Source: Ascidiella aspersa
Taxonomy: Eukaryota
Direction of reading: 5' to 3'
Assembly: GCA_963924565.1 (NCBI GenBank)
Contig: OZ004609.1
Location: 24,614,001-24,678,000 of the forward strand
DNA length: 64,000 nt
Shown here: one piece after another, positions 12,501 through 54,873 of the stretch
Layout of the letters: each line of letters opens with the position of its first letter
Position numbering within the stretch: the first letter of the stretch is position 1
The notes under the pieces: generated by a model
Told to the model about the DNA's origin: nothing
Seen by the model: the letters and a program-made list of their open reading frames with translations, nothing else
Database searches by the model: none
Position numbers and translations under genes: made by a program

Positions 12501-15500
12501 GCTAAGTATAACAAACCTGGTGTATTGCCCAAGTCTTCGAGGGAAAATTGACTAATAAACCAAAGGCCGCGTCAACATATAAAGGAGCTTTTGTAAAAAC
12601 ATGTTAACCAACAGAAATCCACAAATTGAAACTTTAAACACGAATAGTGTTACTTGTGGAGAAATTTAGATGTTGATTATGCTTACTCTCTATCAAAATG
12701 AATACTTTTATTTACTCAGTTATTAAGTTTAGCTGAAGATAAAGGGAGTTTCTTTTTTTACCAATCAAAACTGAGAAACAATTCATTTTAGGTAACTCTA
12801 TAGCTTTCTGGTTATCGGCCGTTCAACACAAATCTACTACCTAACATATAATGAGAGCTACTAAAAACGTTGGTTACATTTAGGTTCAAAATAAACTAGC
12901 ATTTCGCGACACTGATGCACATTTTAAAATACCTTGAAATTAATAGAATTTGCGCAATGTGTTTCCTCATCAAGGTTCGTGGAAACAAATCGCCTTAACC
13001 TCGACTGCTCATTTAATCACTCGTACACAACACTTGTTTAGCCTTTGTCCGATCGACTATTAATGCCAGATGACTGAAAAGGCGTACATTAAGTCAGAAC
13101 TGAACACCCCACTGGAGTGGATCGCAGACACGACAGTGTTTACTTTACACGCGTCAATGATTAACTTTGTGTTTAGAAGCGGCGCGCTCAGACCCCTCAA
13201 AGCGAAGTTCGTCGTCACTTGTGCGTTTATGGATTGCAATTAATTATTCAGGCTCAGTTGCAAAGGCGGTGGCAGTTTTAAGGCGTCGGTCATAAATTCA
13301 TCACACCCGCTTTACGCGCTTGTCGTGATTGATAAATGATGACGGCTTACAGCGGCTTGAAGGAGGTTGGCATCGTACACTTTTTTACGGCTCTATTAAA
13401 TCAGCCAATAGGCGAGACTATTAGTTGCGTCAAAATATGCCAAATGGAAACGCGCTTTAACAGTTGATTCTGTGAACCCGGACAATATAAACAATAAATC
13501 ACAGCCTGGTGATTATAAAACAATTTCTAACCACTTACACTACATCCACTTTCGTATAATTAGTTGAAGCGTCTATTTTACCAACTAAGCTACAGTAAAA
13601 TCACTACTCCAATATCACATTTCCACTGCGCCAGACACTGCTACAAAGTACAAATGCCTAGTGAAAGTGTTCTGGTCTAGCACTGTTAGTACGGTTGTCA
13701 CAAAGGGAGTTGTGAGTTGGCACAGTGGCACTTTGGAGAAACCGCGAGATTGCCACGAGCCTCTAACAAAGGCGAGAAACCTGAACTGACTGAAACTGAT
13801 GCGCGTTTTTGTAGGTCGGTTTGAATGCCTGGAAAGTGCTAAACCCCACTTTCAACTATGTGCTTACGTTTCTAAGCATCATTTCAAGGAATCTTTAAAT
13901 GCAGTTAGACACAGTGTTCTGTGTATATTCTATTGGTTACGATTTAAAATTCGTGCATCGCAGTCTATTCACATAGGCCTAGGACCTAAGGCATCTTATT
14001 TGTCAGAGTTCAAATAATTTAGGTACCCATCACAACATAAATATATTTAAAATCTTCTGCATCTGACTAAATCTTTATAAACTTATAATTTGTGTGTTTA
14101 CCCTTTAAAAAACTGTTAATCTAGATAAACTGTTTACCAGAAGATGAACAAGCCAGGCAACAGTAAAACGTACAATAAAAAAATAATACGTATTTTATAA
14201 ATAAAAATGACTTAATAGACCATTACCTCCGTAGTTTTCTAAGTTGTCGTATCCGATCTCGTCGACCTCTTCCGACTTTGCCGCGCCGAATGAGCTCCTC
14301 CGGACTGGGGCGACTGGAGGAGGAGGCTTGGAGGTAGGAGCGGCTGAGCGCTTCTTCGGTTTGGGCTTCTTATTGACGCTGAAGTCAAGCGGGAAGTTGG
14401 GAGTGTCGCTCAGGTTGCCGTCTTCTTGCTCTCTCGACTTGCTCCTCTTCAGCGTTCCAACGGCCACTGCCTCGTTAAATTCGTTTACCGATGACATGAT
14501 GGAGGACGGGGTGAGCTCCTGCTCGTTTGAGGATGTCGATCGGCGGAATTGATCCGGCTGTCGGGGCGCCGGCATATCTACAATAGTCGGTTCGAGCTTG
14601 GACAAGTCCACCATGCCGTACGGCTCCACATCCGGCACCGTCCTTTCGGGCTCATGCCTTGAAATGGATTCGTTCTGGGAAGAGCGCGATCCCTCTGCGC
14701 TCCTGCCTCCGCTCACTGAGGACTCGGAGAGCCGACTTTCGCGCGACGTGTCCCGTTTGAGGACGTGACGCGAAGAGTGATGGCTCTCTGTGTCTTCATC
14801 GCTGATGAACTCGTAGTCGCCCTCGTTGTCGGCTGCCAAGTCTTTCGGCGCCGGGTGGAAAACAGGTCGTGGTTGACTCTCGAGTGGAAACGGGCGATCC
14901 GCCGCTTTCGGGGATGTAACGCTGGCAATCGGCTGGTTGTTAGGTCTCGGCGACTTCACGCTTCCGGGAAACAGCATCGGGTTGCTTTGCCAGCGAACGG
15001 AAGAAGCGTCCGACTCTTCTGTGGAACTGCTGGTCGACTGCATGGCCGTGCTGCTGCCGCCGCCGCGCGCCGAATGCTCGGACATGACAGTCTCCGTTTC
15101 GGTGGTTTCACCGTCCAGCTCGCTGTCTTCGTTGAGCGCGCGTCGGGAAGACGCTACACTGCTCAGTGCGCTTCCGCCCAGCGACGTGACCTGTTTACCG
15201 CCGTGGCGGGAGTTGAGCGTGTATTCCTCGGCGTAGGCGGAAGCGTCGTCTCCTGTTACTGAGGAAGCGCAAGACGATGAGTCGCCGTAAGTGCTGTCTT
15301 CTTCCAGAATAGGCGCCAGTGGCTCGTCCACCAGGGTCCTGGCGCGCACCTCCTCGGGCGAAAACTGCTGCGCTAGAAGCTGCTGCTGCATGATGGCCGA
15401 CGGCGTCAGGGTTGTCAAAGTTGTCGACAGAGCCGACGAACTCGCCAATGGAAAAGCAGGCTGCAAAGGCTGGGGCATAGGCGAAGGCATGTGCGGAACG

Positions 15501-18277
15501 TTGGCCGACTGTGGTTGAATTACATTTAGCCTTAGCTGAGCTTGGTTCAGTCGTTTTGCAGCTTGTTCAGTTACGGCCTTTTCTTGTGACTCGGTGGGTG
15601 TTAGATCCGGTGACGACTGGCTGTCGGCCCTTTTCGCTACCGACTGCCGGTTGAACTTTAATTGCTTCGGCGGCAACTTGGGTGGGCTGTTTTTAGGTGG
15701 CAAGGCAACAGAATCCTCACTCAAGTTTTCCTTTAGTTTCTTGTATTCAAACTCCAGTTCCCCGATTGCATTGCGAAATTCAGGATGGCCATGGCCCTTG
15801 CCGGCATTCTTATTCCGCCGAATTGTATCCGTCTCTTCGTAATTCGGCTGTATTTGAGGCTGCGGTGTCTTACCCGCCGCCATTATCTGCTGTGGACTGC
15901 TTTGCTTGAACATCGCCTTATCGTTGTTGCTGGCCTGCCTGGCGTTAGTATCAGCAGCAGTCAGGCCCGCTGACGTGTCACGCTGTCGAGCCAGCTCGGC
16001 CTTGATTTGCTGCTCTCTACGTTTCTCCTCTTGTTCTCGCTTCTGCCTCACCTTCTCCATGATATCCATGTTGTCGTAGTAGAGAATTTCTTCGTCGATG
16101 TCGCGCTGCTGTTTCGGCGGCGACTGCTGATCGTACGGAATGCTGACAGGGAAAGTGCCGACACTTTCGTTGGCAACGTCGCCTGGCCAAAACTGCTGCT
16201 GCTGCGGGGCGGCTCGTTCAGCCGTTTCGCCCGCCTGCTTCTGTCTGCTAATTTCCGCGCTCGACTGATCAGCTGAACTGTTTAAACTGCCAGTCGCGCT
16301 TCGCTGGACGCCGTTATCCCAAGACTGTTGTTTGCTAATTCCTCGCGTGCCCGCAGTGTCCTGAGGCGTAGCACGCTTCGAATCGATTCTCTGCGGGACT
16401 GCGGGTGCCCGATGGTTGCTGCCCAACCACGCCGTCGGTTGTTGACATGTTTTCGCCACGGAATCCTTTGGCTCTTTCGCGCTATTTTCGGAGAAACGCC
16501 CGCTTGTCGCTTCGCCAGGAATTCCATCATCTTGTGGCGGCTCGGGCGGCGGAGGTAGATCCGGCGGCGGGGGCAATTCGAGGTCGTCGTCGAACATCAG
16601 CGTTTGGTCATTGCTGGGCTTCGGGTAAGCGGGCATGGCAAATCGACTCTCGATCGCAAAAACCGCCTCGTGCGACAACTTGCCGACATTTGGCGACGAC
16701 TGCGAGTGCGGAAAGGCTGGAACGACTGGCTGCTGATGCTGGCCTAAGGCGGGCGAAGTCGGACCGTCTTTGAAGAACTTCTTCTTCTCGGTTGGCGAGA
16801 TGAGGGAGTTGATTAGCTTTGACTCGAACTCGTGCTCGTATCGGTTTTTCAGATCTTGCAGATTCTGCGACGCGTCGACTGTCTCGCGAGGGCGCTCGTG
16901 CTCCAGCGACCAGGGCTCCTGCTTGAGGTATTCCAGTTCGGATTTGGACGGTGAGGCCAGCAGATCGGGATTGTTTGCCAGGTAATCGCTGTCGTAAGTT
17001 TCGTCATCACCGAACGACTCGAGGTCTTTCATGTTTAGAATGTCGCGAAACAGCTCGTTGGCCGTGGGGTTCATCGTCCCGTTGTTCTCGCCATAAGGCG
17101 AATACAGACTTGTGGGGGGCGTGAACTTCGGGTCGGGTTCGGGCTTTTTAAACTTCATCTTCATTTTTTCAAAGCGCTGACGTATCTCGGACACAGGGGC
17201 TAGCGCTGGGTCGCTAGAGTCGATTGGTGGAGACAGAGGCTCCGGGGACGCGATGCCGTTGCTGATTTCCGATTTAATGGTGAGGGACGGCGGCCGGTGC
17301 TTTGGCTTGCTGGCCACTTTGGGCGGCAGTTTTCGGATATCCGGGGCTTGAGGCGCGGCGATAAAGACCGGGCTCTCCATTGGAGTCGGCGGTGATTGCG
17401 GAGCACTGTTAGATGACCTCGGACTCAACGCTGCATTGCCGCTCGATTTCGTCGAAACGGAGCTCTGGCTACCTTGCTTTGGAACGTGCGCGTCAAAGGT
17501 CGTCACTTGTTTAGATTTTGTATTCCCGTTTGGCGCACTCACCTTCCTTATTCCTGTCGGGTTAAAGCGGAATATTCCTTCGCCGCTTGTAGGCGCCGAC
17601 TTGACTTGATCGGCGCTGTTCGGTCGCAGACTCTTAGGCTTCGGTGCCACAAACGGCTTTGGCGATAGAATCGACGGCTTGCTGAGCGTCGGCTTTAAGC
17701 TTCTGGGCAAAGTCAGCGATTGTACACGGTTGAGCTTACTGCCCTTGTTGCTGCTGTTGTTTTGGTTCGTGGAGAACCTATTCGCGCTGCCTGAAGCCTC
17801 TTGCTGCCCTGTAACAGCGCTGCTGCTGCTAATGCTGACGTTGCTTGACGGTTCGCTGTAGGCGTTTGACTGATTGCGATCTGTCGCTCGCGCGTTGGGA
17901 TGATGCTGCACTGTCAGATCGAAGCGACCGCCATCGATTCGGCCAGCACCGGCGGCGGCCCCCGGTGCGGAATCGCGTTTTTCCAGCGACTGGGCACTCA
18001 GGCGCGACCGTTCACGCGCCGCTGCATTCAGCGCGAGTACCTGCTGCTGGTGCTGGTGCTGGTGATGCGGCTGCTGTTCCGTTTGTTTTTGTTCCTGGCC
18101 AGCGCCCACGGCTACTCGCCGCTGCCAAACGTCGTGGCCGTCATCGAGAGCGTAGCTCCTCGCTGCGCCCGAGGAGGAGTGAGAGTGGGAGGCGGAGGAA
18201 GAGCGACGAGGCAAAGTAGTAGCGCCCCTGTTTATCTCGAGCGGCGCGCGAGCCAGCACCTCTACCGAGCTCGTCAT
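533..18277 (-). CDS. Large multi-exon gene, >2200 aa of Ser/Pro/Gln/Arg-rich, predicted disordered protein; 3' end lies outside the window; product unidentified
   Basis: Coding exons with GT-AG boundaries and consistent phases: 18277-14227 (first ATG after an in-frame TAG), 12412-10867, 10591-10334, 9575-9283, 4445-4330, 2723-2536, 736-533. Includes the 1364-aa and 497-aa ORFs. GC-rich codon usage. No recognisable folded domain within the window. Confidence 0.85.
5080..5433. repeat. GACTT-rich interspersed repeat, probable non-autonomous DNA transposon remnant
   Basis: Multiple GACTTGAC motifs ending in ...CAACACTG; similar tracts at ~31397-32200 and, inverted, at ~44622-44980. Left boundary approximate. 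Confidence 0.5.
9710..9973. mobile_element. hAT-type MITE
   Basis: Termini CAGTGGTCGTCAACCT / AGGTTGGAGACCACTG; near-identical 8-bp flanks CTTTAAAG / CGTTAAAG. Confidence 0.8.
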
Positions 18278-19171
18278 CGCGCCGTTCAATTTCCTCTATT
18301 GTCTGGTGCTGGTCTGAAGCCGTTGCGGAATGCGTCGCAGCGGCTACGGCGATGCGGTGCGTCTAAAGACGCCTTTCCTTGGTGCGTAGCTGGATTGTCA
18401 CAGGACAACCTTCGGCATAAACGGAAGTAACGTTCTCGAGTGGGCACAGTTTAATTTTAGTAATGTGTTAAATTTCGTGCCGGCGTCACCGGACAGATGG
18501 CAACGTTCTTTGGCACTTTTTGGCCACACCTTATGTTGCTTGTCCGCTAACCTTCAAAGACAAACAGTTAAATTATAGGATGTATTAATACTTTGCGTCC
18601 ATTTTACGAAAATATGGAAAACAACGGGTTTAAAAAGATTTTACCATTAAGCAGAATGAAAGATGGCAATTAAATATATCTTTACTAAAAATACGTTGAT
18701 TTGCCCCAATCGAAGTACGACAATTATTATTCAATTATTATTGGCAGTAAAGCTCGTGCAAAAATCCATACAAAATGACCTGACACAATGTAATAGTGTT
18801 TTAGGCCTGAACCACACACAATGTAATAGTGTTTCGTCCCTGCAATGTAAAGAGGCCGAAATTAGAGGTAAGAGAATGCACAAATTGGAAAATAACCCCA
18901 CGACCGTGTTTACGAGGAAAGCGGTTTAGGGCGTTTCTCACAACGCCAAGGTATAGCAGTGCCTTGTTTTGTGGTTAGCGGACACCCAAACACCGACAAA
19001 GGAAGTTTAGTGAATGAATCACCACACGAAAACAGCAAAAATGTTTCAGGTTTTAGGTCTTTTCTGCAACTAAGGCAATAAAGCAAACAACCAAGCGAAG
19101 ATTCATATTCTGTTAGTTGATGTGCGATAAAAAATTTATTGCCGCGTTTGTGTTGCAACTGATCCATTTAC

Positions 19172-19283
19172 TTTGGGTTTTCAGTCACATTAACTGAAGA
19201 TGATACAAGCTCGTATCGAAACGTCTTAATTATCAAGATGATGACGATCTACTCGACCTTTTTGGCTTTGCAATTTATTATCA
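19172..19283 (+). mobile_element. 112-bp hammerhead-bearing insert (Penelope-like pLTR fragment or retrozyme-like element)
   Basis: Flanked by a perfect 12-bp direct repeat TGATCCATTTAC (19160-19171 and 19284-19295); a homologous decayed copy lies at ~21436-21528. Confidence 0.8.
19189..19230 (+). ncRNA. Minimal type I hammerhead ribozyme
   Basis: Stem I ATTAA/TTAAT, core CTGAAGA(T), stem II GATAC-aagctc-GTATC, GAAA, palindromic ACGT stem III, GUC cleavage triplet (predicted cut after 19225). Confidence 0.8.
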
Positions 19284-33600: not shown

Positions 33601-36600
33601 TAAAGTCGACGGAAAACAAAAGCCTACAACACCCGGTATTCCCAGGCGGTCACCCATCCAAGTACTAACCGGGCCCGACGTTGCTTAACTTCCCAGATCG
33701 GACGAGATGGGGTGGATTCAACGTGGTATGGTCGTAGGCAACGGTAAGCGCGAAATCAATCGCTATATACGCGCGTGGATATCAATTAGGCCAGGAAAAG
33801 ATATTGGTGTAATGTTTTCCGATAAGTACTGTATAAATTTCTAACATTGCTGATTAAAGGCTCGCTACCGTTTCTCTTTTCATAAAAAGCCTTACGGTTA
33901 GAGAAGTTGGCCCAACTAACATCTCTACATTTAAATATTGCCTCCCAAAAAATGCTCTGATTAAATTTTCAATCTTCAAAACATACAAAACGTAGCACAA
34001 CAAAATGAATATATGAAGATTTATCTAATTTCCTTAAAATCACGATTTTTTTTTAGCAAGGAGGCATCAAGACACTTACACAGAATACGTACAGCAACCC
34101 TAACCGAGTATAAACAACGCAACATTTGGACTGGGTTAGCAAAATATCGCGTTCATTGCAGCGGTTTAACACTAAGCAAATTTACTTTTCAAACAGTTTT
34201 TTTTTTCGTTAGATGCAGTATGGGATTTACGTTTTTGCTTGAATTTCGCGCAATTTGAATAAACGATTGGTTCGCAATGCAAAAAGAATTCACAGGGCGC
34301 GATCTTTGTTAGTGTATTATAAAATAAAGCCACTTTAGGTTTAATTATTTTCGGTGCATTTCGGACAGTATGACAAAAATCTATTTCACGGCGTCTCATG
34401 GTGAAAAGTTTAACAAAGTTTGGAGCTGGTCTGGAATCCTGCCACATTTTCGTCCGGGGTTTATATTGCTCACATTATTTGGGTTAGTGTTTGTGTTTGG
34501 GTGGGTTAAGTTATTGTTAATAATATATTTATTCTCCCACATTTTGTAATTTTGATTTTGCCAACTTGTTTGGTTACTGTTAAAAAGTGGTAGAATTGTC
34601 AGAACAGTACCTGTATAAATCGATCAATCGCATTTGAAAACGAATGCGAAAAATAAGTAAGTCGACGAAATACAAAAGCCTACAACACCCGGTATTCCCA
34701 GGCGGTCACCCATCCAAGTACTAACCGGGCCCGACGTTGCTTAACTTCCCAGATCGGACGAGATGGGGTGGATTCAACGTGGTATGGTCGTAGGCAAAGT
34801 TAAGCGCGAAATCAATAGATATATACGCGCGTGGAAATCAATTACGACATACAAAACATATTGGAAATGTTTTCTGCTGAACGTTTTTTAGGTACAGTAT
34901 AAAGTAGGGCTACCATATTTTCAGCACCCAAAATAGGAAAAATTTTTTGCCGGCAAGTAAAACGAAAGTACAATTGTTTCTTTGGAGTTTAATGAAGTTT
35001 TATGCTGATTTTCGGGATGTTTGGTTGTTTTGGGATTCTCGGGTTAATTTTTGATAGGATATTTGGTGTTACTGGCCGACTCAAGCGCAAATATTGATCG
35101 GTTTGTTGTAAATTTTGCGGTTGGCGGCTACAAAGACAGTTACATGGGACGATTTAAAATCCTACGTTTTAAAGTGAATAATCACACAACTTTGCTTTAT
35201 TAATGGGCCTTTTTTTACATGTGAGGTTTGGTTGCAAATTTTCTGGCGCAATGTTTGCAATAACAATCAAGAACAAGGGAGGGCAATTATATTTAACCGC
35301 GGGCCGCATGGGAAACTTTAAATGTTGTGGTGGGCCAGGTCAAAATTAGGATCTCAGATACACGCAATATGACGTCATACTCTAACGCTATAAAACACAT
35401 AAGCTAATGAATTTGTTATTACGTTTGGAGTTGTGCCAAAATGTGCAATTTAAGTCAAAATTTAAGAAAGCCACAAGGCATCGGGGCAAGCGCGAAAAAT
35501 GCGACTATATTGGTTTCAAAATGTAAAGTTTAATTTAGAGTTCAAGGGGGGGCATGACGCATTAAGCACAGAAAAAAAAATATAAGTTGCTTAATATATT
35601 GGCGTTTGCGGTACAACGGCCATATTGCAAAGACGATATAAATGGGGAGAAACACACAACATGACATTAACTAAACTAGGTCGAAAAAATGTGAATCGGT
35701 ATAATGTTTCAGAGTTTAGAAAACGGTCGGTATTTCGTTCAGATTTTAAAGACGGAATACTTTCGACAGAAGCGCAAAAGATATATAAATATTAGACTAA
35801 ATTAGTTAAACTTTCGTCGGAGATAGTGCCACAGTGCAGAAGACGCTATTTGTCAGTTAAGATGCCAAAAATCATGTGAAACATACGAGAAAGACAGAAG
35901 AGATTCGCGCAAATCGCGAAAACAGTTTCCGTTTTAGTATTTAGAACAGGCTTAAAATATAAGTTTGCGGGCTCATGACTAGATCCGTCCCTGGAAAAAG
36001 TGTTTTAGGATACAACCAAACATGTAGAAACTCGTCCTTGTTTTCCCTTGACCTATATGTATTTTAAGGAAAATAAGACAAGGGCCGGATTAAATTGCTT
36101 GGTGGGCCGTATATTGCCCAGGTCTGATAAAAAAGGTAGGGTTGGTAGGGCAATTTATTGGAAAACCTTTTCTAAACCAGCAATTCGGCATGTTTCATGG
36201 CTACAGTATTTTTTTGGAAATAAATACAACGTCTCGCTTAAAAGTATTGTTGAAAATATATGCAACTAACTCCAAATGCGAAAAAATAGGACATTTGGGC
36301 ATTTTTAAGCATCCTCAAAGGACCATTCACTTTTCTTGAGAAAAAAGGACAAATCCTCCTAGAAGAGGACATATGGTAGGCGTAGTAGTATAAAGGTTCT
36401 AACATTACTGATTGAAGGCTCGCTACCGTTTCTCAATTTATAAGAAACCTTTCCGTTAAATAAGATTGCCCAACTAAGATCTAATCGCCTTTTTTTTTAA
36501 ATTGCTCTGTGATAAAATGATCAATCTTAAAAATATACACAACGTCGCACAAAAAATGAAGATATATATAAGTTCCTTTAAATATCGATTTTTTTTAAAG

Positions 36601-39600
36601 AGTCATAGTTCCTATCGTCGTGAGGTCATGAGAAAATATTAAAACGACTCGCTAAAATAATTCACAGGGCGAAATTGTTAGTTTATTATATAAGTCATTT
36701 TAGGTTTACCGGTAATTCTTTTCCGCACATTTCGGACAGTACGGCAAAATTCTATTTCACGACGCCCTAGGATTGTGCAATAGCGCCAAAACTAAACATG
36801 TGTAAATCGATTAATCGCATTTAGAAAAGAATTTAAACATTTTCTAAACAGTAAAGTCGACGGAAAACAAAAGCCTACAACACCCGGTATTCCCAGGCGG
36901 TCACCCATCCAAGTACTAACCGGGCCCGACGTTGCTTAACTTCCCAGATCGGACGAGATGGGGTGGATTCAACGTGGTATGGTCGTAGGCAAAGGTTAGC
37001 GCGAAATCAATGGCTATAGACGCGCGCGTGCATCAACTACGCCAGACATATTATATCGGTTGTGTTTTACGTTTACGTCTAGGTGTAAGCTTTCTAAGAT
37101 TACTGATTTAAAGACTTGCTAGTGTTTTTCATTTTATATGAAACCTTTCGGAAGTTTGCCCAACTAAGATCTATTTTAAATATCGCCTTCTTAAAAAAAA
37201 ATACTCTGTGGTCAAATGATTAATCTTTAAAACATACACAACGTCGCACAAAAAAATGAATTTAGGTTCCTTTAAATTTCGATTTTTTTTTAAAGAGGTT
37301 TAGTTCCCATAGTCGTGAGGTCATGAGAAAATATTAAAACGACTCGCTAAAACGAGTTGGAAAGGAGAATTCACGAAGCACGGTCGTTGTTAGTTTATTA
37401 TGAAATATAAGCCATTTTAGCTTCAATTGTTTTTGGTACATTTCGGACAGTATGACAAAAATCTATTTTACGGCACCTAATGGCGCAATCAAGACACGCT
37501 GTGACCTTTCCATAAAACATGACATCGTACTGTTCGACTGAAATCTTTTTCGCGATTAACAAAACAAAGTTTGGCTCTGGTCGAGAATCCTGCCACATTT
37601 TCGTCCGGGGGTTTATATTGCTAACATTATTTGGGTTGAGGTGCGAGATAAGGCTTGGGTTTGGGAGGGTCAAGTTACTGCTATTATCATATTTATTCTC
37701 CTATATTTACTTCAAATGTGACAACTCTTTCGTTACTGTAAAAAAATGTTAGGATTGTAGATCAGAGCAACAACAATACCTGTATAAATCGATAAACCGC
37801 ATTTGGAAACAAATTCAAACATTTTCTAAATAGTAAGTCGACTGAAAACAAAAGCCTACAACACCCGGTATTCCCAGGCGGTCACCCATCCAAGTACTAA
37901 CCGGGCCCGACGTTGCTTAACTTCCCAGATCGGACGAGATGGGGTGGATTCAACGTGGTATGGTCGTAGGCAAAGGTAAGCGCGAAATCAATGGCTATAT
38001 ACGCGCGGGTATATAACAATTAGGCCAGACAAACACTATTGGTAGTTTTCCGTTGACGTATAAACATTTTAACATTACTGATTTAACGCTATATAGTCAC
38101 TAGTGTTTCTCATGTTATAAGCAACCTCTCGATTAAAGAAGTTATCCCAACTAAGACCTACATTTTTAAATATTGCCTATTTTAAAAAATGTTCTGTGAT
38201 CAAATGTAAATTTTCAAAAACATATAAAAATTTATTTTATTTCCTTGAAATCTCGAAGTATTTAAAGAGTCATAGTGCCCACGGCCATGATGTCTTAAGA
38301 AAATATTAAAACGACTCGCTAAAACGAGTTGGTTAGCAATGCAAAAAATAATTCACAGGGCGCGACCGTTGTTAGTTTATTATAAAATATAAGCCATTTT
38401 AGGTTTAATTGTTTTCGGTACATTTCGGACAGTATGACAAAAATCTATTTCACGGCACCTGATGGTGCAATCAAGACACGCAGTGACCTGGCCGTAAAAT
38501 CATGATCTCGTACTGTTCGACTGAAATCTTTTTCACGTTTAGGAAAACAAAGTTTGGCGCTGGTCGAGAATCCTGCCACATTTTCGTCCGGGGGTTTATA
38601 TTGCTAACATTATTTGGGTTGAGGTGCGGGCGCGATCTTTGTTAGTGTATTATAAAATAAAGCCACTTTAGGTTTAATTATTTTCGGTGCATTTCGGACA
38701 GTATGACAAAAATCTATTTCACGGCACCTTATGGTGCAATCAAGACACGCAGTGACCTGGCCGTGAAAACATGATAACGTAATGTTCGACTGAAATCTAT
38801 TTCGAACTCACGTTTAACAAAGTTTGGAGCTGGTCTGGAATCCTGCAACATTTTCGTCCGGGGTTTATATTGCTCACATTATTTGGGTTAGTGTTTGTGT
38901 TTGGGTGGGTTAAGTTATTGTTAATAATATATTTATTCTCCCATATTTTGTAATTTTGATTTTGCCAACTCGTTTGGTTACTGTTAAAAAGTGGTAGAAT
39001 TGTCAGAACAGTACCTGTATAAATCGATCAATCGCATTTGAAAACGAATGCGAAAAATAAGTAAGTCGACGAAATACAAAAGCCTACAACACCCGGTATT
39101 CCCAGGCGGTCACCCATCCAAGTACTAACCGGGCCCGACGTTGCTTAACTTCCCAGATCGGACGAGATGGGGTGGATTCAACGTGGTATGGTCGTAGGCA
39201 ACGGTAAGCGCGAAATCAATCGGTATATATGCGTGTTGATGTTAATTAGGCCAAACAAAATATATTGGTAACTAGACGAAATACCCGGCGTTGCCCAAGT
39301 TAAATAGGGTATCTACTTTTTACTTGTAACAATTAATAAACATTTGCAGTAGGCGGTATGTATTATGTGCATTCGTGCAATGCCCGATTTTGCGTGGTAT
39401 TGCAGGTAGCAAAAGACGTTCTTGTAATTTAGCGTAGCCCTGTACACGGAACTTAGTAAACTGTGCTGCTGCTGATAGTCGAATTATGATATAAATCAAT
39501 CACACATATTTCACGGTCTTGGTTTAGTTTTTCGCCTATGTTAACGATTGCACACTAAGCAGTTTCGCAGCTGGCACCTGGCAGGAGTTTTGACAACGCA

Positions 39601-42600
39601 TTGTTCGCTTTGCGTCTTACGGTTTGCTTTTGCTGTATACGTTAATTGACTCTTTCTGGTTAGTTTTTTTCAATTTATGACGTCATTAAAATCACTATTT
39701 TATGAGGTCATGCCTGTCACTATTTTTATTTTGACTGCCGGATCGAAGTACCAAGTTCGGAACCGATAATGCCGCACACTGCAAATTGTAAAGGTGGGAT
39801 AGCTTTGGGTGAGTGAAGAAAGGCAAAAGAGATTAAGCTTACCAACTGCAGCATACATTTACGTTTAGTCTAAACACGACCATGCTGCCGCTGTGCATGC
39901 TTACGGCTTGTTGCTACACACATCAATAAATCACTATTATTAGAACGCTAATATAAATAGCAAACTATTAAATCTCTTCACCTACGTTATGTTTTGACGA
40001 TATTTTCTCGCCCTTAGGAGGCATTGTAGTTTGATCGTAAATAGCTTTGACATTGCTTTGCGCCGTTACTGACCGCAACTATGCAAATGTAACTAATTTC
40101 AGTTTATCCACTGCCATGCTGATTTAAGACTATTGATAAAATTCGGCACTCATGCGCTAATCAGCCGAAAATTTATTTTGACAGATATTAGACAAAATTA
40201 CGGATTTTAAACTTAAAAGCACGTGTTTTGTCTTTCATTAGGGGGTACGCCATAAATGCAGCTATGTCAAAAGGGTAGGCAAGTAAAAAATGGAAAACCA
40301 CTGTTTTAATCCCAGCTCAAAATACCGCGTGGCGTGGCTGCGCTAAAAGAGTATCAACCAAAGAAAAAACTTACAGTTTTTAGCTGAACAGAATCGTCCG
40401 AGGTGATGTCTTCCATGGAACACACTGAGTTGACCACTTCGCCGATAGCGGAGTCGACGAGTGCCGAAAGACTGCGCATGAACATCGGTAGCGGAAGGAC
40501 ACCACGCCAGACCTTGCGCAGATGATGCAGCTGGTACATGACCTGACGGAGAATGGAATCAATATCGGGTTGATGTTGTGCTTTTACGGAAAGTGCACCG
40601 CGGGCAAGCAACGTATTATAGTACAAATTTAAACTTTTGAGTCATCATTGAGAACTTGCGCACGCGTAGAAGCGACGATTTGGAATCGCCTTTGGTGTGG
40701 GTAAAACTTGCTTACAAACCACCTGGAACTATCTCTGTTTCTGCATATCTCATAGTCGCGCTGTCTTGGAATTCAGTTTTTCAATAGCTCATACCAGTAT
40801 TTCTAAAAGTTGTACAACATTCTTGCGCTATAGGCTACATGAATACAAGTAAACTAACAGTTTCCTCTTTGTGTAAGAAAAACAAAGATGTATGGAGTTT
40901 CGGGAGCATATGGTTTAAAGGTGTGTTAGCTAGACGTAGAATAAATATTTAAAGCCCTACACAACTATATAGCACTGTGTAAACGTTTTTAACAGTTTAA
41001 ATTTTACCACGTTATTTGAGGCAGACAATAATTGTTAAGTATAGCCCGTTAAAAAAGGAATAAACACCAAACAGTTATACGAAATGTTAGAATGCTATCA
41101 ATTTCCAGTATGGGCTTTGATGTGTATTCTTCGCCTAAATCCCTAATTCTGTCCTATTTTATGTTTTTCTGGTAAGTGTAAAACATATAGTGCGTGAAAA
41201 AATTTTTTAAATATTTTTAGATTTTCTTAAGCATCACCGTAAACTATAAGTAACAAACGTTTGTTTGAACGTGTAGTGGACTGTTCAAAACACTTATGCT
41301 TCTAAAAGAGATAGTTAATGCTGTTGTTTGATACATAGTCATTAACAGCCGTTTGAAATTTGGTAAGATAATCATAATAATGTCCCCTAGCATAAAACTC
41401 TTTTCAAGTAATGTGCTTATGAAAGACCAGACCAAGCGATAGGTTTGACTCACGTGCGCAGTTTAAAAGATAACCATAGAAACCTGTTTGATTGGCTTTT
41501 CGGCCATCTGATACTTGTCGGCGTTCGTGTTGGTGGCGAAGTTTTTCAACGGCGAAAGGTACTCGACAATGACGTTTCGCTGTCGTCTCATCTGGGCAAG
41601 AAAGCAATCTTCGCCTGGGCGGAAAGTAGAACAATGTTTGTTCCAGTCACGGTGAGAGAGCAATCGGCCAATAATTGAAGCGTTTTAAGTAATTTCCACA
41701 AATAACCCACAACAGAAAGGTGTCCGAGATTTTGGATTGAAAAAACACGACACTTTTACACGATATGGCAAATGTACGTACTACCAACTCGCGTCTTTTT
41801 GTTTTTATTTGCGGTAAAGCTAGTAAAAAGTAAAATAATCTACAGCTGATGCTGAAAAAATCTTAAGCCTTCGACTGCACCAATTTTGACACTATGATCA
41901 CATTTTAAAGACGATCAATTAGTCGCGCAAAAAAAAATTTAATGAGAATTATTTTGCATTTTTTTTATTCAAGATTTTTAATAATCATGGGACAAGTAAA
42001 TCGATAGCGCATTAATACTTAGGAATAGGGGGGGTCACCTACCTAGTTTTCGTAAAGGTTGAACTTGTTGAACGAAAGTCAAGTCTGCGCTCTTGACCAT
42101 GGACGGTAACCTAGTGGACAGCTGCTGACCCATGGTCAAGAGATGGTGGGCAATGTAGTAGCAGTTGTTGTGGTGGACGGCGGACACTTGCGGCAAACTT
42201 TCCAACGCGTCTCTGTAACAACAGAATAATTAAAACTGTTTGACCTTGAATAAATTAAAACTGTTTGACCTCGCCTATATTTACATTTTAAATGCTTTTG
42301 CTAAATGACAGCGTTGGAAACTGGCCATTTTGTAGTGATTCAAGTTCAGGCCACATCACCATGCAATACAATAATTTTATATCCGGGAAACATTTTCTGG
42401 TCTAGAATCTTTCCACTTTTGTAACGAAACGAGTTGCAAAAAATTGCAGGAAATATTAAATGTTATAACAATATTTGACCTACACTAACCTAAATAATAA
42501 TGTTTGCAAGAAAATGTAGTAGTAGGTTTCTAGACCAGCATCACATTTTCGGCTTATGTTAAGGTAGTCTAAAACAAACAATAGCTTTCCAAATTTACTT

Positions 42601-45600
42601 TTGACGTAAATAACAGGTTTAGGTTTTCAAATAGTAAAAATTCATTTTTCAGTTTATTATATTATTAAAAATGAACTTTTTACCCTGTAAAGCGCAAAAG
42701 CCTACAACACCCGGTATTCCCAGGCGGTCACCCATCCAAGTACTAACCGGGCCCGACGTTGCTTAACTTCCCAGATCGGACGAGATGGGGTGGATTCAAC
42801 GTGGTATGGTCGTAGGCAAAGGTAAGCGCGAAATCAATCGGTATATACGAGCGTACATATCCATTTTCCAGACGCAATAAGTATCATCATAGTACAGGGG
42901 AGGGCAATCTGCGGCTCGCTAGCATGTTTGTTGTGGCTCTTCTAATCGAATCATTAAATGCCCAAAAAATTGTAAAGGCTACCAAGATAATTATTAAAGT
43001 TTCTCTATTTTTCTTTTCTTTATTTAGGCCAGCATTTTGTTTATGACGTAACACTAGAAATAGAATACGAAGAGTTAGTTAACAACAAGTCAACTGAATT
43101 CCATTGCTAAGGTTTCAGAGATTAGCAAATCAAACAAAAATTATTTCTGCAAATGGCTCTTCCAATGAATACATTTGCCCACCCCTGCCATAGTATTTAT
43201 CGTTTATATGCTAGTGTTTCTAAAACATTTGTGAACCAGGGCAATTACTTCGCAAACTTGTAAAACCCTGTACTAATTGCGATTTAAATATGTTTTAAAT
43301 GACAAAAATAAATGTATTTTAAATATTGAAGTATGGTAGAAATTGCGGACCTTGCTGATATATCTTTAACAAGTTTTAAAAACGGTACACTTAATAACAT
43401 GCCCAATTAGAACAGAGTCAATATGTTAGCTATCAGGTTTCCAACGCAAATTTGGCAGCATCCGGCTATAGTAATATACCATACATTAGGTTTCGATAAC
43501 CGACGCCAAATTGAACTTTCGTTTGGTTAAATATCTAACATTCTCGATATTTGTGTGGCCGGGAGTACCGTGCCCTGCCACCTCATAACACTAACAGAAA
43601 GACCTACGAAAATAAAATTCATTGTAGATTCCTCTTTTCATGATCTGCACTACTCAGACGTGTTTTGCAATAATAGTTTGCCATCGAATCGTAAACAAGT
43701 AACAACGCGTCATTTACATATAATATCTAGCAAAAATATTTCCACAGATCCTTGTCAAACTGTAAAAGTATTTGAACACTAGCCCAGATAACAATATAGC
43801 GCTTGATCAATTGGATAACTATTGCCATCTGACTTTGAAATCATGAACATTTGTATGGAAAATATAAATTAAAAACTTCAAAATTATTAAATACTTTTAA
43901 AATTGACTAAAGCAACTCACCTGTGAAAATTTGGTACATCGGATTGAAAGTGCTCAAAAATTTCATCTATCGTAACGATCAATCGCATGGCGCTGAAAAA
44001 AATAAAAATCGCATTCAATAAGAAATTCCAAAATTTTTCAATTAGTAAGTCGACAGAAAACAAAAGCCTACAACACCCGGTATTCCCAGGCGGTCACCCA
44101 TCCAAGTACTAACCGGGCCCGACGTTGCTTAACTTCCCAGATCGGACGAGATGGGGTGGATTCAACGTGGTATGGTCGTAGGCAACGGTAAGCGCGAAAT
44201 CAATCGCTATATACGCGAATTGCTATGCGTCGTGGTTACGGCAAACCAAGTAACTGGGAGCTATGTAAATCTAGATAACTATTTGTATTACGAGTCGCAG
44301 ACACGGCTATAGTATGCCGCAGTACAACTTTAAATATTAGGAAAACATTTCTTTTATTTTCTACAGAGAAAACATAACAAACGTAAAGTGTTCCATCAGT
44401 GGTTAGATATTAACTGTTTTTTAGTGCTTAAAATTGGCATTTTTTTGTTTAAAGAGCTTGGCGTTGTTGAGGCATCTTTTTAATTTTGCACTTGTTTGGA
44501 ACGATGTGTCGATCAAACCATGTTTTACTCGTTATGTGCGATACCGTATTCCCTATGTATTTTTATTTCGGTTGCTATATCGAGTTTAGGCGAAATGGAT
44601 CGCTTAATTATATATATTTTCTAGTGTTGTAAACAAGTAAAGTCCAAGTCAAGAATAAGTTAATTACAAATGAAATATTTTCGAAAAAATAACAAGTCAA
44701 GTCCCAGTCCAGTCATGTCAACTTTCATTGACGTAACAAATAAAACTATAAACTATATTAATAGACAACAAGCAATTTATTTTTCGTGCAAAAATTTAAA
44801 TCAATTACCCAACTGTATTAAAAATATTGATTGAAAACACTTAATTTTAGCTTAAGTTATTTGACAGAAAGACATAAGTAAGTCCATGTCAAGTCATTTT
44901 GGCCAAAAGACTGAAGTCTCAAGTCAAGTCATTTGACAAAAGTGAAGAGCTCTAAGTCAAGTCACAAGTCATAACAACTGTGATATTTTGTAACTGGTAA
45001 CAACAATGGTTTTGGTTTTGGACTCCATAAAGATACGCCCTTTTAGATAAGTTTGAGATTTTTGGGAAAGAGTATGGGTAGAGAAACATATGTTAACCAA
45101 CTAACGAAAGGCCTAAGATGCCTAAAAATAAAATAATTCTACTTTCTACACTACATGTTTCAGTACACGTACAGGCAGATCTGGAAGCCACACTTTATTA
45201 AATCCGGATATTTTTGATCAAACAAAATCAAAGAAACAAACAAGCAAAATTACTAAACGTTATACACTCACCATTCGGAGCTGGCGGTCATGGCTTCGTA
45301 CAAAGTTTCGTAAACGAGAGAGACCAACTCCAGTGTGCTTGTGCTAACTCGACATCTGAACAGACAGAAGGTGAGATATATGCTGTATATGCTTTAGCCC
45401 TGGGTTTAAACATAGATGGGAACCTGTACCTACGAACTATTTCCAGACATATTTTATTTTCATATTTTATTACAACTGTTTGAACATCTTTGTTTATTTA
45501 TGTTATTGAGTATGAATCTTTCTTTCGCAAATCTAGCATCCCAAAAGCGTTATTAGTCACTACTTTCTGATTAATAACGAAATGCATTTTTTCTAGTAAT

Positions 45601-48600
45601 TGTTTTGACGCAACACCTTTGCATTCTGTTGGAGACCCTGAGATTTAATACCGTATAAAGTGCTGTTGGGTAACAAATGTTGCTGTTGGTAGTTTTGTGG
45701 TTTAAAAACTGGTCATCAAACACGATGTGAAACTACAGCAGTCGTGCGACAACATGGAGCTCGATCTTACTTTGTTTCATTAACGCTTGACGAACATAAT
45801 TGTTGTCAATAAAAGCCAGCAAGTCGACGTAAACAAACACAGTTCGCTATACAGTGGATTGTTCAATAAGACCTGATTAACTCTAATCAATACAAAATCA
45901 TATTCCCAGGCAGCCACGCATCCAAGTATACTAAAGACTTTTTCGGCCCGCCACAACATTTTATGTTTCTCATGCGGCCCGCGGTAAAAAAATAATTACA
46001 AAGATCAAACGCGAACATTGTTACTTTATCATTAATTTAAACTTTTTGAGGTTTATTGCTCGTTCGTACATAGACTATACTCCTATATATTGTGGAAGTC
46101 TGGCTGTGAACTAAAACAATAATTGTGCTGTTTAACTGACATATTTAAAAATTCACTTACTGTACAGTTTTTAAAAGGCGTAAAGCTGAAAATCCATTTA
46201 TCTTGTTTTCAATAAAATAGCCCTTTGCTTTGCGAGGGGCAAAAGCCTACAACACCCGGTATTCCCAGGCGGTCACCCATCCAAGTACTATCTGGGCCCG
46301 ACGTTGCTTAACTTCCCAGATCGGACGAGATGGGGTGGATTCAACGTGGTATGGTCGTAGGCAACGGTAAGCACGAAATCATTCAGTATATACATGCGTA
46401 AAGCGTGTTTTGCGAGACGGAAAAAACTGTCGTCATAGTAATTGACGTTTTTATACCATCAGTTATTCTCAATAGTAATTTAAATCAGGTCCCAACTGGT
46501 ATTACAACCAGGATTCAACACGTTATGGTCGCAGGTGAAGGTACACTGTAAAGCAAACCTTCTATAGGGCTGACTATCGACGAACGCGTGGTGTATATAC
46601 AGATACAGAGGTTTAATAGCATAATGTGTTTAATCGGAATTGCCACACACATACACACACACACACACACGGAGTTTTGATTTAGTGTTTATATTTGATA
46701 TAAACGATACTTTTTACTTTCAAGTAAACACTAAACTAATTTTAAAGAGAAGTAACATACCTTTTGTCACATTATATAGAAAGCATAAAGCCGCAATCAA
46801 ACATTAAGCTGCCAAGTTTAGCATTTTAGCTTTGTGTACAGTTTCCCGCGAGAAAAGGGAGAACAAAATTAGATTAGCCTAACGTAAATAATATGGATTA
46901 ACCAAAAACAAACATGTGTTTTAAAGTTATAATCCGAAATTCAGCTTCGGGGTAGATACTAAGAACTCCATACATAATATACTGCCGGTCAATTGTTCTT
47001 CACAAAGCGGACATGTGGGGTAGTCAAACTTGACATGACCGTATACGTGTAATTCCACGAGCCCAATCAAACATTTAACTCACTGTTTCTCGGCCTTTTA
47101 TGGCTAGCGGCACCCCTTAGAAATTAAAAATTGATTGCAGCACCCATACAAGATTTCCGTAGGCAATTCACTAGAATGTCACCATAAACGGAACTGGAAC
47201 AACATTCATTAATTCTACACAACGTAGGAAGTTAAAATTGGGTTTATTCCACTCTATTCTTACACAAAAAGTTGTAGGAGTTGAGCAAAAATTAGAGTCT
47301 TAAAAATTCCCAGAAAAGTCGCGGCACCCGTAAGGATTAGAAAGTTGAGAACCACTGATTTAACTGGTCAGCATTTCGCGTGTGTTTAACACTTACTTGG
47401 GAAACAATAAAACATCCTGGGCATTTTCTTTAGGTTGGCTGGCGGCGGGGGCAGCAGGGACAACTATCTGGTCACTTGACTCTTTCTTTATTTCTCCCAT
47501 TATCCGAGAGAAGAAACTGTCGACATCGCCTTTTCCGCCGTCCGTTATCTATACAATATTACAAAAATTACCACATCTGGAGACCAGAGAGTTGCTTAAA
47601 CCTATATATTTTTTTACATTTAAAGTTAAATCAGAATACTATGAGTTTATTGAAATCAAAAGTGGTCATGCATTTGAGTATTAAATACAACCAACCCGAA
47701 ATCGAATAAACTTTAACAATTTATTTGCATGAGTGGCGTTAGAAGTATATCACTGCCCGGCTGTGGCTTGACTTCACACTTCACCAATTTTAATGAACTG
47801 TTTAATTTTTTTTCTGAAAGCACTTGCTACAGTTAAGAAATTTGACTGCTTACAGCGATAAAAAACAAGGAAATCATTAGGCGTACTAAAGTTTCGCTCA
47901 CCGGGCTTGTTTCGTGTATTTCCTTCTTCATGATGGACCTTGCTTTTCCCATGATGGCCGTACATCGACGGTTTGCAAAATGCACGTGAATGTCCGACAC
48001 GTAAGCCAACAGGCCACCTACAAATGGGAAAGACAAAGCTACAAAAAGTCTAAGGAACATGGCACATAGCAGATGAAACTACTAACAGCTTTGGAGCATT
48101 GTTGAGCATGGGTTTTGGTAAAATTGACGAACATGGAGACGTTTTATTTCTATGTCTATGAGATCGATGTTATTGTAATTCATACCACGGTTAGTGGTGC
48201 TACACTTGAAAGTCCACCTAGAGAGGGAGGTCTGACACAATATATTTCTATACCACGGCTAATTTAAAAATTAGACGACGTCTTTAAAAAAGTAAAACAC
48301 ACAAAATAGACAAATCAAAACATAAAGCTATCGGTTTCTGGGGATTGGGACAAAATTTGCTTTTGTATTAAAAATATTAAACTTGATTGTTAAGTCCATG
48401 TTCTTATAAACAAACACAGCGTTGGATTGCAAACAATTGCTAAAATGCACAAATTAATACGGTTTCATACCGGCACCTAACACTAGCAGTGGACATAAAG
48501 TAAACATAAACTTACCGGGGTTTTCGGGCAAGAAGTGGATACTTTGTAGTGCCGATTCAAACTTTGCAACCACCTCGACAATCTAAACACATCCATGAAA

Positions 48601-52200: not shown

Positions 52201-53753
52201 TTTGTCAACGTATTGTGGAAAACTTTGCAAAGCAGATAACGACAGTAGAATGAACTATGAAAAAAATATTTTGATTCTTTGGCTGAAAGTTAAACGGATG
52301 ATGGTGCAGTAAATTAATATTACCTTGCATCGAAGTACAACTTCCTAAACAAAATTAAACTTGTAAAAATAGTTAAAAAACAAACAGAAAAACCAAAAAC
52401 TTTTATTATATAAAATTTTTCCTTTTTTTCGTTCAATTTGCTTTATAATTTGAGTAACGATACATTTTGTATCGCTAATTGGATATACTTTGTTTTGCAT
52501 TTAAATTTTACCGCATTCCCAATTGGGAAATTCCCTGATATCTAACATTTGATTTAAAATTATTAATTATTTTGCAAAACCTTTGTACAACAAGAGGCAC
52601 GATTTTATAAACAGTGTTTTCAACAATTAGTCAAATGAAAAAAAAGGTGCGAATCGAAAGGACAGATTTGGGTTGGTACGGGAACTCCTTCTAACCAATG
52701 ATACTATATAACATATATAGTATCATTGTTCTAACTAATACCATTAAGACACAGAAGAATATAAATAAAGGCCAGGGATAGCAAACCATTGAGGTCACAA
52801 ATTGGCCCATTACGGTTACAAACTGATTTGTTGCTCTAAAACTATCATAAACCAATTGGTTGTTTTAAAAATCACAAAATATCACCAAACATTTCAGAAC
52901 AAAACAAAATGTGTAACCACTGTTCTTCAACGTGTAAACCATGCAAAAACACAATATTTGCATCGTGGATGACCAGCCAAATTCGCCTTGACACATTCAA
53001 GACCTGAATCAGGCGCGGATCTAGGATTTCAGTTTGGGGAGGGCCATGAATTTTTTTCAGATATGACGTCACAATTTTTTCAGATATTACGTCACAAAAG
53101 TATACCATTGCGTGACGTCATAATTCAGGTAAAAATAACATCGGCTGGCCGAATAAACTAACTCCTGTAAAATAACGCGAAAAACAGACCCTTTGAAAGC
53201 ACAAAAAAGTAATAAGGTTAGCTTCTACAGTGGGCCGGTTTCCTAGTTTGACCCGGTATGAAGAATATCGCTGACGCTACCATGTCTATTGTCTACACAT
53301 CTTGCTTTTTCCCGAAAAGGCGAGAGCAACCGCACATGCCACCGAAAAAGCGCCGAGGCCACGTCGCAATAAAACCATAGCGTTGTCTGCTGCGGTCAGC
53401 TGTGGTTCTTTCATGACACTTCTCTCAATTTTTAAGTTACTGTAGTTGTTTTTTGCCAAATAAGGTTGCTGAAATGAGCAAAACTCTATGCAAAGTTAAT
53501 CCTAACATTGGATAGGTTATTCAAATCCTTACACAAGGGTCGGCAACCTTTGTGTAGTAGTCGCGGGCTAAAACCAAACTCAGAAAGGTCTCTCACACAA
53601 CATATGTTAAATGAGATTTTGTGTTATTACAACGTTATAACAATTGTGAATCAGGTGGGCCTCGGATTTTTTTGCACTTTAAAAACGTGTTTATAATTAC
53701 TTTTAAGGAGGCAGTAAAGTCTTGGCGCACTATTAAAAAAGTGTAATAAAACT

Positions 53754-53978
53754 TTATCTTCAGTAGAAAGAGAGTGGCCCAAATAATAGATAAAAGATTC
53801 ATTCTTTTATTAGCAAACGTTTCGGCAATTTCTTTTGCCATCATCAGTGCAGTAAGTGAGTGCAGTAAGTGGTAAGTTACTGCACTGATGATGGCAAAAG
53901 AAATTGCCGAAACGTTTGCTAATAAAAGAATGAATCTTTTATCTATTATTTGGGCCACTCTCTTTCTACTGAAGATAA
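53754..53978. repeat. Perfect inverted repeat (102-bp arms, 21-nt spacer), each arm carrying a hammerhead motif
   Basis: 53754-53855 is the reverse complement of 53877-53978. Confidence 0.95.
53877..53922 (+). ncRNA. Minimal type I hammerhead-like motif (mirror copy on the minus strand at 53810-53855)
   Basis: GCA-CTGATGA(T)-GGCAA-aagaaa-TTGCC-GAAA-CG-TT-TGC: intact core and stem II, ACGT stem III, GUU triplet, short stem I. Confidence 0.65.
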
Positions 53979-54873
53979 TCAACAGATCCGTGTTTAGTGT
54001 TCCTATGTAATAAAACTACTTTGAGAAAACGCGATAAATTTTATAGTTAATCTATCTTAGTGTTTGTTAACCATTTGGGGCACACCTGGCGAGCGAAGCG
54101 GGCGCGATTTTTTTGGTATTCCGGTATTTCTTTTAAATTTCTTGTTTTTGTTACATTTAAAAAAAATGGTTAAAAAATATTTTTCGATTATGTTTGAATA
54201 CGTTTTTCGTTTGTCCGCGACGCACTTGGCAGCTTTCCACGGCGCAACAGTAAAGAAGCGCTGATCTAGTTCAAAAAGAGCATCAAAACGTAAACACACT
54301 GGATGTATAAAGACCATTAGCGCGAAGCGCGAAAATTTTTCGCATTTACACACTTAAAATAGTCAAAAAGTATTTAAAATGGACTCGTGTCTAATTTGTC
54401 AAAGAGGCGGCGGGCCGGATGAAGTATATTGGCAGGCTGGTTATGATACAGATTTGATTAACAACAAAAAATATTTTAATTGTGCTTGGATATAAGTTAG
54501 TTATTATATAGTCGAGGTCAGCGTACGGTCACTTAAGCCGTCTCTGCAAATTTGAAAAACGCCGCTTTGCGCGAGTGCGCGAAACGAATTTTACCATTTT
54601 TTTGAAATATTCATTATATGGCGCCATAAGCTCGCACACCACTACAAAGCTTAAAAATATGTCTTATTTTGGCAAAATATAGGCCATACTACCTAGGGAA
54701 CCGCGAAAATAAGCTGCCTATTGAGTAAAAAAATGCACATATTTTTTAGTTTGGGGGGGCCATGACCATATCGCCCCCCCCCCTAGATCCGCCCCTGACC
54801 TGAATGCACCCTATATATAAGAGAGTGAAGTAACGCGGATGGCCATCGTTCAGGCTTGAGTACTGCAAAAACA

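Follow-up and report, generated by a model that had tools for sequence, protein, structure and literature searches.

What has produced a perfect palindrome with a hammerhead ribozyme motif on each of its strands, and does it do anything where it now lies? The window, by which we mean the whole 64,000-nt stretch of AT-rich eukaryotic DNA analysed here, contains such a structure at 53754–53978, and an earlier note made from its letters alone had read it as a young fold-back insertion of 225 bp. Elsewhere the window carries a 5S rRNA cluster of eight genes (33621–46362, minus strand) with irregular spacing and partly repeated spacers, and two long open frames on the minus strand (14195–18295, 1366 codons, and 10863–12434, 523 codons) without a Pfam match at E≤1. 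The features of the locus are as follows, with element position 1 set at 53877 and position 0 counted.

53010–54797, no strand assigned: host repeat that received the element; its termini are short inverted repeats and it is flanked by an 8-bp duplication (53002–53009 and 54798–54805), delimited with paralogue L107
53742–53753, plus strand: left copy of the 12-bp target-site duplication, TGTAATAAAACT, identical to 54006–54017 and present once in the empty site of L107
53754–53860, minus strand: tail-less arm, running from element position 102 down to −4, antisense on the plus strand, a 100% match over 107 nt to element copy L079
53813–53850, minus strand: minimal type I hammerhead motif from the motif scan, predicted cut after 53816
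53861–53876, no strand assigned: junction insert of 16 nt, a re-copy of the antisense strand next to it, its boundary with the left arm ambiguous by 2 nt
53877–54005, plus strand: tailed arm, element positions 1–129, comprising the pLTR end and the first ORF codons (ATGs at 53888 and 53891), with 0 mismatches to the pLTR–ORF junction of L079 over 129 nt
53882–53919, plus strand: minimal type I hammerhead from the motif scan, predicted cut after 53916, with features as given in the available text of PMC4209133
53979–54005, plus strand: 27-nt 'tail', on the right arm only, common to sister copies that end at about 126–130
54006–54017, plus strand: right copy of the 12-bp target-site duplication, identical to 53742–53753

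The inverted repeat is formed by arms at 53754–53855 and 53877–53978, each 102 nt long and 100% complementary to the other, with a 21-nt spacer between them; the runner-up in the 50–58 kb part of the window has 39 nt at 79%. The perfection of the palindrome had been described correctly, and the spacer, described as repeats of the arm end, consists of GTGAG, which is 5 nt more of the element antisense strand, and 16 nt re-copied from the same strand with an 11-nt templated match to its adjacent part. What did not hold was the idea that the 225-bp palindrome is the whole insertion. By comparison with sister copies, the right arm goes beyond the palindrome by 27 nt, up to 54005, and the left arm takes in 5 nt of the spacer. 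The full inserted unit of 252 bp (53754–54005) is larger than the palindrome and is framed by the exact 12-bp duplication.

A read or assembly fold-back, named in the earlier note as the artefact that could undo its reading, would account for perfect arms, and no spanning contig piece was among those listed. Nevertheless, a fold-back of the assembly at this locus is very unlikely because of the target-site duplication and the paralogue L107, which is 94–96% identical to 53010–54726, lacks the insertion and has the 12-mer once. In addition, only element sequence is mirrored and the flanks are not, the tail is present on one side only, and 55 other inverted insertions were found each with its own junctions, so that we give an artefact of either kind next to no chance. 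The palindrome is a recent insertion within a high-copy repeat, the empty-site junction having 380 exact matches in the genome. The host repeats are nested, with an inner high-copy repeat at about 53533–54440, matching L108–L110 at 71–80%, inside the outer one at 53010–54797, which may be hAT-like, to judge by its 8-bp duplication.

In order to identify the parent of the two arms, one arm was compared with its own genome (309 Mb, 75 contigs), as the earlier note had proposed. This gave 53 matches, many of them at 100%, among 40 scored of 630 candidates, and an exact 21-mer of the element has 216 matches in the genome. At locus L079 a 1038-nt partial copy lies ahead of a 2773-nt unit, a partial tandem that forms the pLTRs, and the intact ORF of 837 aa starts inside the hammerhead; this partial tandem ends tail-less and a target-site duplication is not evident there. 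The near-identical copy L031 shows RVT_1 (E 9e-10) and a GIY-YIG domain at the C-terminal end (E 1e-5) in Pfam, and the parent protein is matched by 1711 homologues with E≤1e-20 out of 7997 scored. At L031:3756–9901, at least 2.2 kb including the element end and its flank are duplicated at 99.96% identity, 3945 nt apart, which could be a recent segmental duplication or an effect of the assembly.

Both arms consist of that end of a young EN+ Penelope-like element (PLE) which bears the hammerhead, as follows from the 216 exact 21-mers, the intact RT/GIY-YIG ORF and the match to L079 without mismatch; the tailed arm reads MMAKEIAETF... in translation. The family has a single ORF with RT and C-terminal GIY-YIG, pLTRs in partial tandem, a hammerhead motif in the pLTR and, at the palindrome locus and in 56 of the 75 loci surveyed below, an inverted 5'-truncated copy with a one-sided tail and a target-site duplication. 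The Penelope-like origin suspected from the letters is borne out by the domains of the 837-aa parent ORF, and the youth of the insertion by the empty site in the paralogue and the many 100% sister copies. From its layout the element likely belongs to the Penelope/Poseidon clade. A Zn-finger-like linker between RT and EN is described for Neptune and Nematis in the available text of PMC8557442, and none was evident in the translation when read by eye.

As had been claimed, a hammerhead motif is present on each strand. A motif scan of both strands over the whole window gave three hammerhead-like cores with a stem II, at 53885 (plus), 53847 (minus) and 19194 (plus), and an Rfam scan of the window found no hammerhead family at E≤5 and only 5S rRNA above threshold. 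Each arm contains CTGATGA-T-GGCAA/AAGAAA/TTGCC-GAAACGTT, which can be divided into stem I (GCA/TGC), the core CTGATGA, an extra T, a 5-bp stem II with a 6-nt loop, GAAA and a palindromic stem III region. The arms thus show the CUGANGA and GAAA boxes, the extra nucleotide after position 9, G10.1–C11.1 and the palindromic 15.2–16.2 of the minimal type I class, and the predicted cut after 53916 had been placed correctly. Recurrent variants in sister copies fall at N7, in loop II and at position 17, with one in stem II. The A-rich tail noticed 3' of the hammerhead is there as a sequence, yet it is the start of the element ORF and not a mere tail. The motif at 19.2 kb belongs to a distinct family, as had been stated, with the same layout and different stems (GATAC/GTATC, TTAA/TTAA).

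In comparison to the Schistosoma families in the available text of PMC4209133, which have a stem II of 7–8 bp and a stem I of 4–5 bp, these stems are only 5 bp and 3 bp long, and by the criteria given there a monomer would need a longer stem III. Unlike the metazoan PLE minimal hammerheads of that paper, the motif stands here in an inverted and not in a tandem repeat, and a dimeric fold is therefore impossible in cis. For a single minimal PLE hammerhead no cleavage was detectable in vitro in the experiments reported there, and by analogy one arm on its own would probably show no cut in such an assay. The full-length palindrome is predicted to fold into a single hairpin (−122 kcal/mol as DNA, −180 kcal/mol as RNA). 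A transcript read through from either side would begin with the antisense arm and is predicted to fold into one long hairpin; cleavage within a palindrome transcript is therefore not expected, the ribozyme being buried in 102 bp of predicted helix. The isolated arm or its 3' part folds weakly (z −2.6 with 59 nt, −0.6 with 129 nt and +0.6 for the start-site region), and thus there is no clear stem-loop at the start sites discussed below.

For a survey of the family, 100 of the 216 matches, those listed first and lying on C1–C4 of contigs C1–C9, were grouped into 75 loci. Among these matches, 56 of the 75 loci were scored as inverted pairs, one per locus; the other 19 were unscored as pairs, at least two of them (L090 and L049) having a diverged or 14-nt inverted arm. 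All 56 pairs have exactly one tailed end (p 3e-17 against an independent 50:50 choice). This end lies at 122–137, mostly at about 126–130, with values above 130 probably reflecting chance run-on, and the tail-less end lies at 43–106, in 52 pairs at 89–106. The tail is on the left in 28 and on the right in 28. Sixteen further best-hit loci stand outside these counts, and the 12 of them that are pairs obey the one-tail rule as well. When the tail itself was used as the query, 199 matches were obtained, and inspection by eye of the 100 listed first brought up no two in minus/plus order less than 10 kb apart. Duplications of 11–13 bp were called in 39 of the 56 and these 39 are 78% AT. The insertions have a median size of 196 bp, with 42 of 56 not exceeding 300 bp, and arms above 100 bp occur in nine.

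The two arms overlap in 54 of the 56 insertions, by a median of about 42 bp, and do not overlap in two. In 36 insertions the tail-less arm extends further upstream than the tailed one, and in 20 the reverse holds (34 vs 16 when a difference of at least 20 nt is asked for), by up to 962 nt; at L031 the tail-less arm has 2848 nt and the tailed arm 814 nt. Only three insertions, the palindrome locus among them, have inner ends within 5 nt of each other. Inner ends show a modest clustering at −4 to +3, with 13 of the 56 ends in the tested range falling there (p 3.5e-4, for an interval chosen post hoc), the region where in most copies TCACT stands 22 nt after TATATATA, and as both arms of the palindrome locus end near there its centre may mark the RNA start. 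No enrichment of inner ends was seen at the ribozyme cut (9/50, p 0.11). The junctions of the 50 two-segment cases comprise 21 with microhomology, eight blunt ones and 21 with inserts, several of which are copied from nearby element sequence as at the palindrome locus, and we infer that this pattern fits end-joining or polymerase stutter. At L093, L082 and L057 the junctions contain repeated re-copies of short element stretches resembling the palindrome spacer. At the outer junctions, overlaps of 1–3 nt look similar for tailed and tail-less ends and would suit priming as well as end-joining. A C/T variant (35 T and 38 C in 73 matches) agrees between the arms in 10 of 10 inverted pairs, counted by eye with an exact pattern, and alignments show shared variants in long pairs, with discordance at diagnostic sites in L088 and L106.

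The second family, which is more abundant (2582 candidates), is represented in the window by a tail-less stub at 19178–19283 (plus strand). In 18 pairs taken from its best hits, 16 have one tail, two have none (L118 and L129) and none has two, with L132 and L133 looking like one duplicated event. In a single case in this family (L118:203–248), the start of an arm and the predicted hammerhead cut are no more than 1 nt apart, as though the 3' end of a cleaved RNA had served for priming. The tails of both families (53979–54005 and L117) share the core ACAGATCCGTG..TAGTGT.CC, which reads RSVxSVP in the frame of the first family, while the hammerhead stems differ; this core is a candidate protein-binding or start-site signal.

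How are such insertions made? We consider it likely that the 252-bp insertion arose from two truncated PLE end pieces set head to head by double priming after a staggered cut. The element endonuclease would cut both strands 12 bp apart and so provide two free 3' ends, one of which would prime at a distal start site and the other at a proximal site about 27–33 nt upstream, the tail being the distance between the two sites. The ~100 nt copied would be the same for both cDNAs, which at the palindrome locus would end close to the presumed RNA start, and the two cDNA ends would then be joined by end-joining with short re-copied inserts. Barring later trimming of the centre, the arms look like separate cDNAs. 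From the shared variants we lean towards one source copy per event, though not necessarily one RNA molecule, and concordance could also come from one active source copy at a time or from gene conversion. Several points speak against double priming: the arm excess at the palindrome locus is only 3–5 nt, so the case against a fold-back rests on the family; an asymmetric deletion at a symmetric palindrome centre could mimic unequal arms; two of the 18 pairs of the second family lack a tail altogether, and in the first family L088 and L106 are discordant; and PAc, the Poseidon element of Anolis carolinensis, shows no strand difference in start site in the available text of PMC11167929, which leaves a strict pairing of the sites unexplained there.

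The earlier note had proposed a fold-back as the mechanism, and self-priming on an antisense template has been put forward for head-to-head PLE repeats (Arkhipova 2013, PMC3846280, as far as its available text goes). A cDNA started at the tail site would fold and be copied back to ~27–33 nt short of the target, with deletions at the centre making the arms unequal. One tail per insertion and identical arms would then result by construction, and the inner ends differing by 3–5 nt at the palindrome locus would also suit this course. It is disfavoured because a fold-back copy cannot hold sequence that the first strand lacks, and the tail-less arm is the longer one upstream in 36 of 56 insertions, by at least 20 nt in 34, with L031 as an extreme; inner ends as close as here are the exception, two arm pairs have no overlap at all, and tail-less ends without an inverted partner exist, e.g. 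L098 and L079. Moreover, in PAc one of the places where RT starts is the tail-less boundary (PMC11167929). We thus hold a fold-back for unlikely. Twin priming of the LINE-1 type, an established route to 5' inversions (PMC12016303), could alternatively have acted on a tandem two-unit transcript, where priming of the second strand would take place in the upstream pLTR. The arms would then stem from two different repeats of one RNA, and strand displacement would be unneeded. It accounts for the overlap and for the shared variants, and partial tandems exist (L079), yet alone it gives no reason for exactly one tailed end. Both cDNAs would further have to stop within ~130 nt in the 42 insertions of up to 300 bp, and pairs with both arms more than 500 nt into the ORF (L035, L045, L080) would need at least two full units, which makes this route, differing from double priming only by the repeat copied, rather improbable to us.

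With two motif-bearing arms one may finally think of a functional or mobile unit, that is, a paired-ribozyme device, a non-autonomous palindrome or a source of siRNA or a cruciform. The stable predicted hairpin and the complete core on both strands would agree with this. Against it stand centres that vary from copy to copy, the position in a recent insertion inside a high-copy repeat, and the absence of cleavage in vitro for single minimal hammerheads in PMC4209133. Since both cores are kept in only 11 of the 56 inverted insertions, the paired hammerheads are an incidental by-product of insertion, and a functional unit is in our view hardly credible. A mobile palindrome of the Foldback or MITE type, which should show one and the same centre at many sites, was rejected, as the 56 insertions vary in their inner ends and junctions. 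The same applies to a non-LTR retrozyme, which is a head-to-tail tandem of 150–450 bp with type I hammerheads according to the available text of PMC7229834: the arms are head to head, the window has no further copy and the sequence is part of an autonomous element. In an RNA run with the same species label, of which ~6% was read, 551 reads fell on the locus region, most of them 90–99% alike and continuing into unlike sequence; they therefore come from other repeat copies and carry no information on transcription of the palindrome locus. On the full element, 94% of 132 RNA reads continue into unlike flanks, the depth over the ORF body is 0–2 and no pile-up marks a start. No function is indicated at the palindrome locus, which might in principle extrude a cruciform or give rise to siRNA.

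A reading that goes beyond double priming at this locus, which we regard as quite possible rather than probable and which the one-tail rule and the shared variants open to a direct test, is that Penelope/Poseidon integration is obligate asymmetric double priming. A dimeric protein with one RNA would bring its two fixed start sites to the two ends of a staggered break of 12 bp, the leading cDNA would be displaced by the polymerase that trails it, the tail would be the spacing of the sites and the inverted repeats would be two joined cDNAs. If true, this would explain the long-puzzling inverted repeats together with the tail. The head-to-head PLE layout is already published and the palindrome locus is ordinary mobile DNA; in such genomes a perfect hairpin of ~100 bp that carries ribozyme motifs is everyday debris (9/56, as given above). 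What the young family adds is a one-tail rule (56/56) with overlapping arms and short duplications, which connects genomic structure with the two start sites that PAc uses in vitro and speaks against self-priming as the origin of PLE inverted repeats. How inverted repeats and tail are formed is called undefined in PMC8557442, and the family rule makes this question testable. Our literature search, with subscription papers and supplements outside its scope, found no paper stating a one-tail rule or double priming for PLEs.

Known systems resemble the locus in different respects, and the published texts are compared here as far as they were available. Inverted pLTRs with an optional tail at one end, duplications of 8–10 bp and a promoter candidate of the form TATATATA-20 nt-TCACT are described in PMC3846280, and an inverted 5' copy with a one-sided tail of 30–40 bp is called typical in PMC8557442. 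Like Pen2a_Av of Adineta vaga (PMC3846280), the palindrome has head-to-head inverted pLTRs that include the first codons, a tail at one end, a short target-site duplication, the same motif pair at a similar spacing (22 nt here) and a parent ORF of ~840 aa; unlike Pen2a_Av it is a miniature of 252 bp with no ORF body between the arms. The duplications of 11–13 bp are longer than the 8–10 bp of published inverted PLEs and the tail of 27 nt is shorter than 30–40, and for those elements the tail is given as optional or often one-sided without a count (PMC3846280, PMC8557442). LINE-1 twin priming (PMC12016303) likewise primes cDNA from both target strands, leaves a 5' inversion within one target-site duplication and shows microhomology or inserts at the junction; its second primer lands at variable internal positions, with an occasional overlap (15–42%, median 12 bp), whereas here the two positions hardly vary and the arms nearly always overlap (54/56, median about 42 bp). 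The closest parallel is PAc, the only PLE studied in vitro (PMC11167929), where both strands are cut and extended and RT starts at two adjacent internal sites bounding the tail. It belongs to another family and host, is compared by geometry only, and inverted insertions or a pairing of sites are not described in the main text of that paper. As in PAc the ORF starts inside the hammerhead, the targets are AT-rich and two start sites bound the tail. Counted from the ATG at 53891, the predicted cut lies at 26 nt and the distal end at 115 nt; the corresponding values in PAc are 26 nt from the ATG for the cut and 111–118 nt into the ORF for the start of RT.
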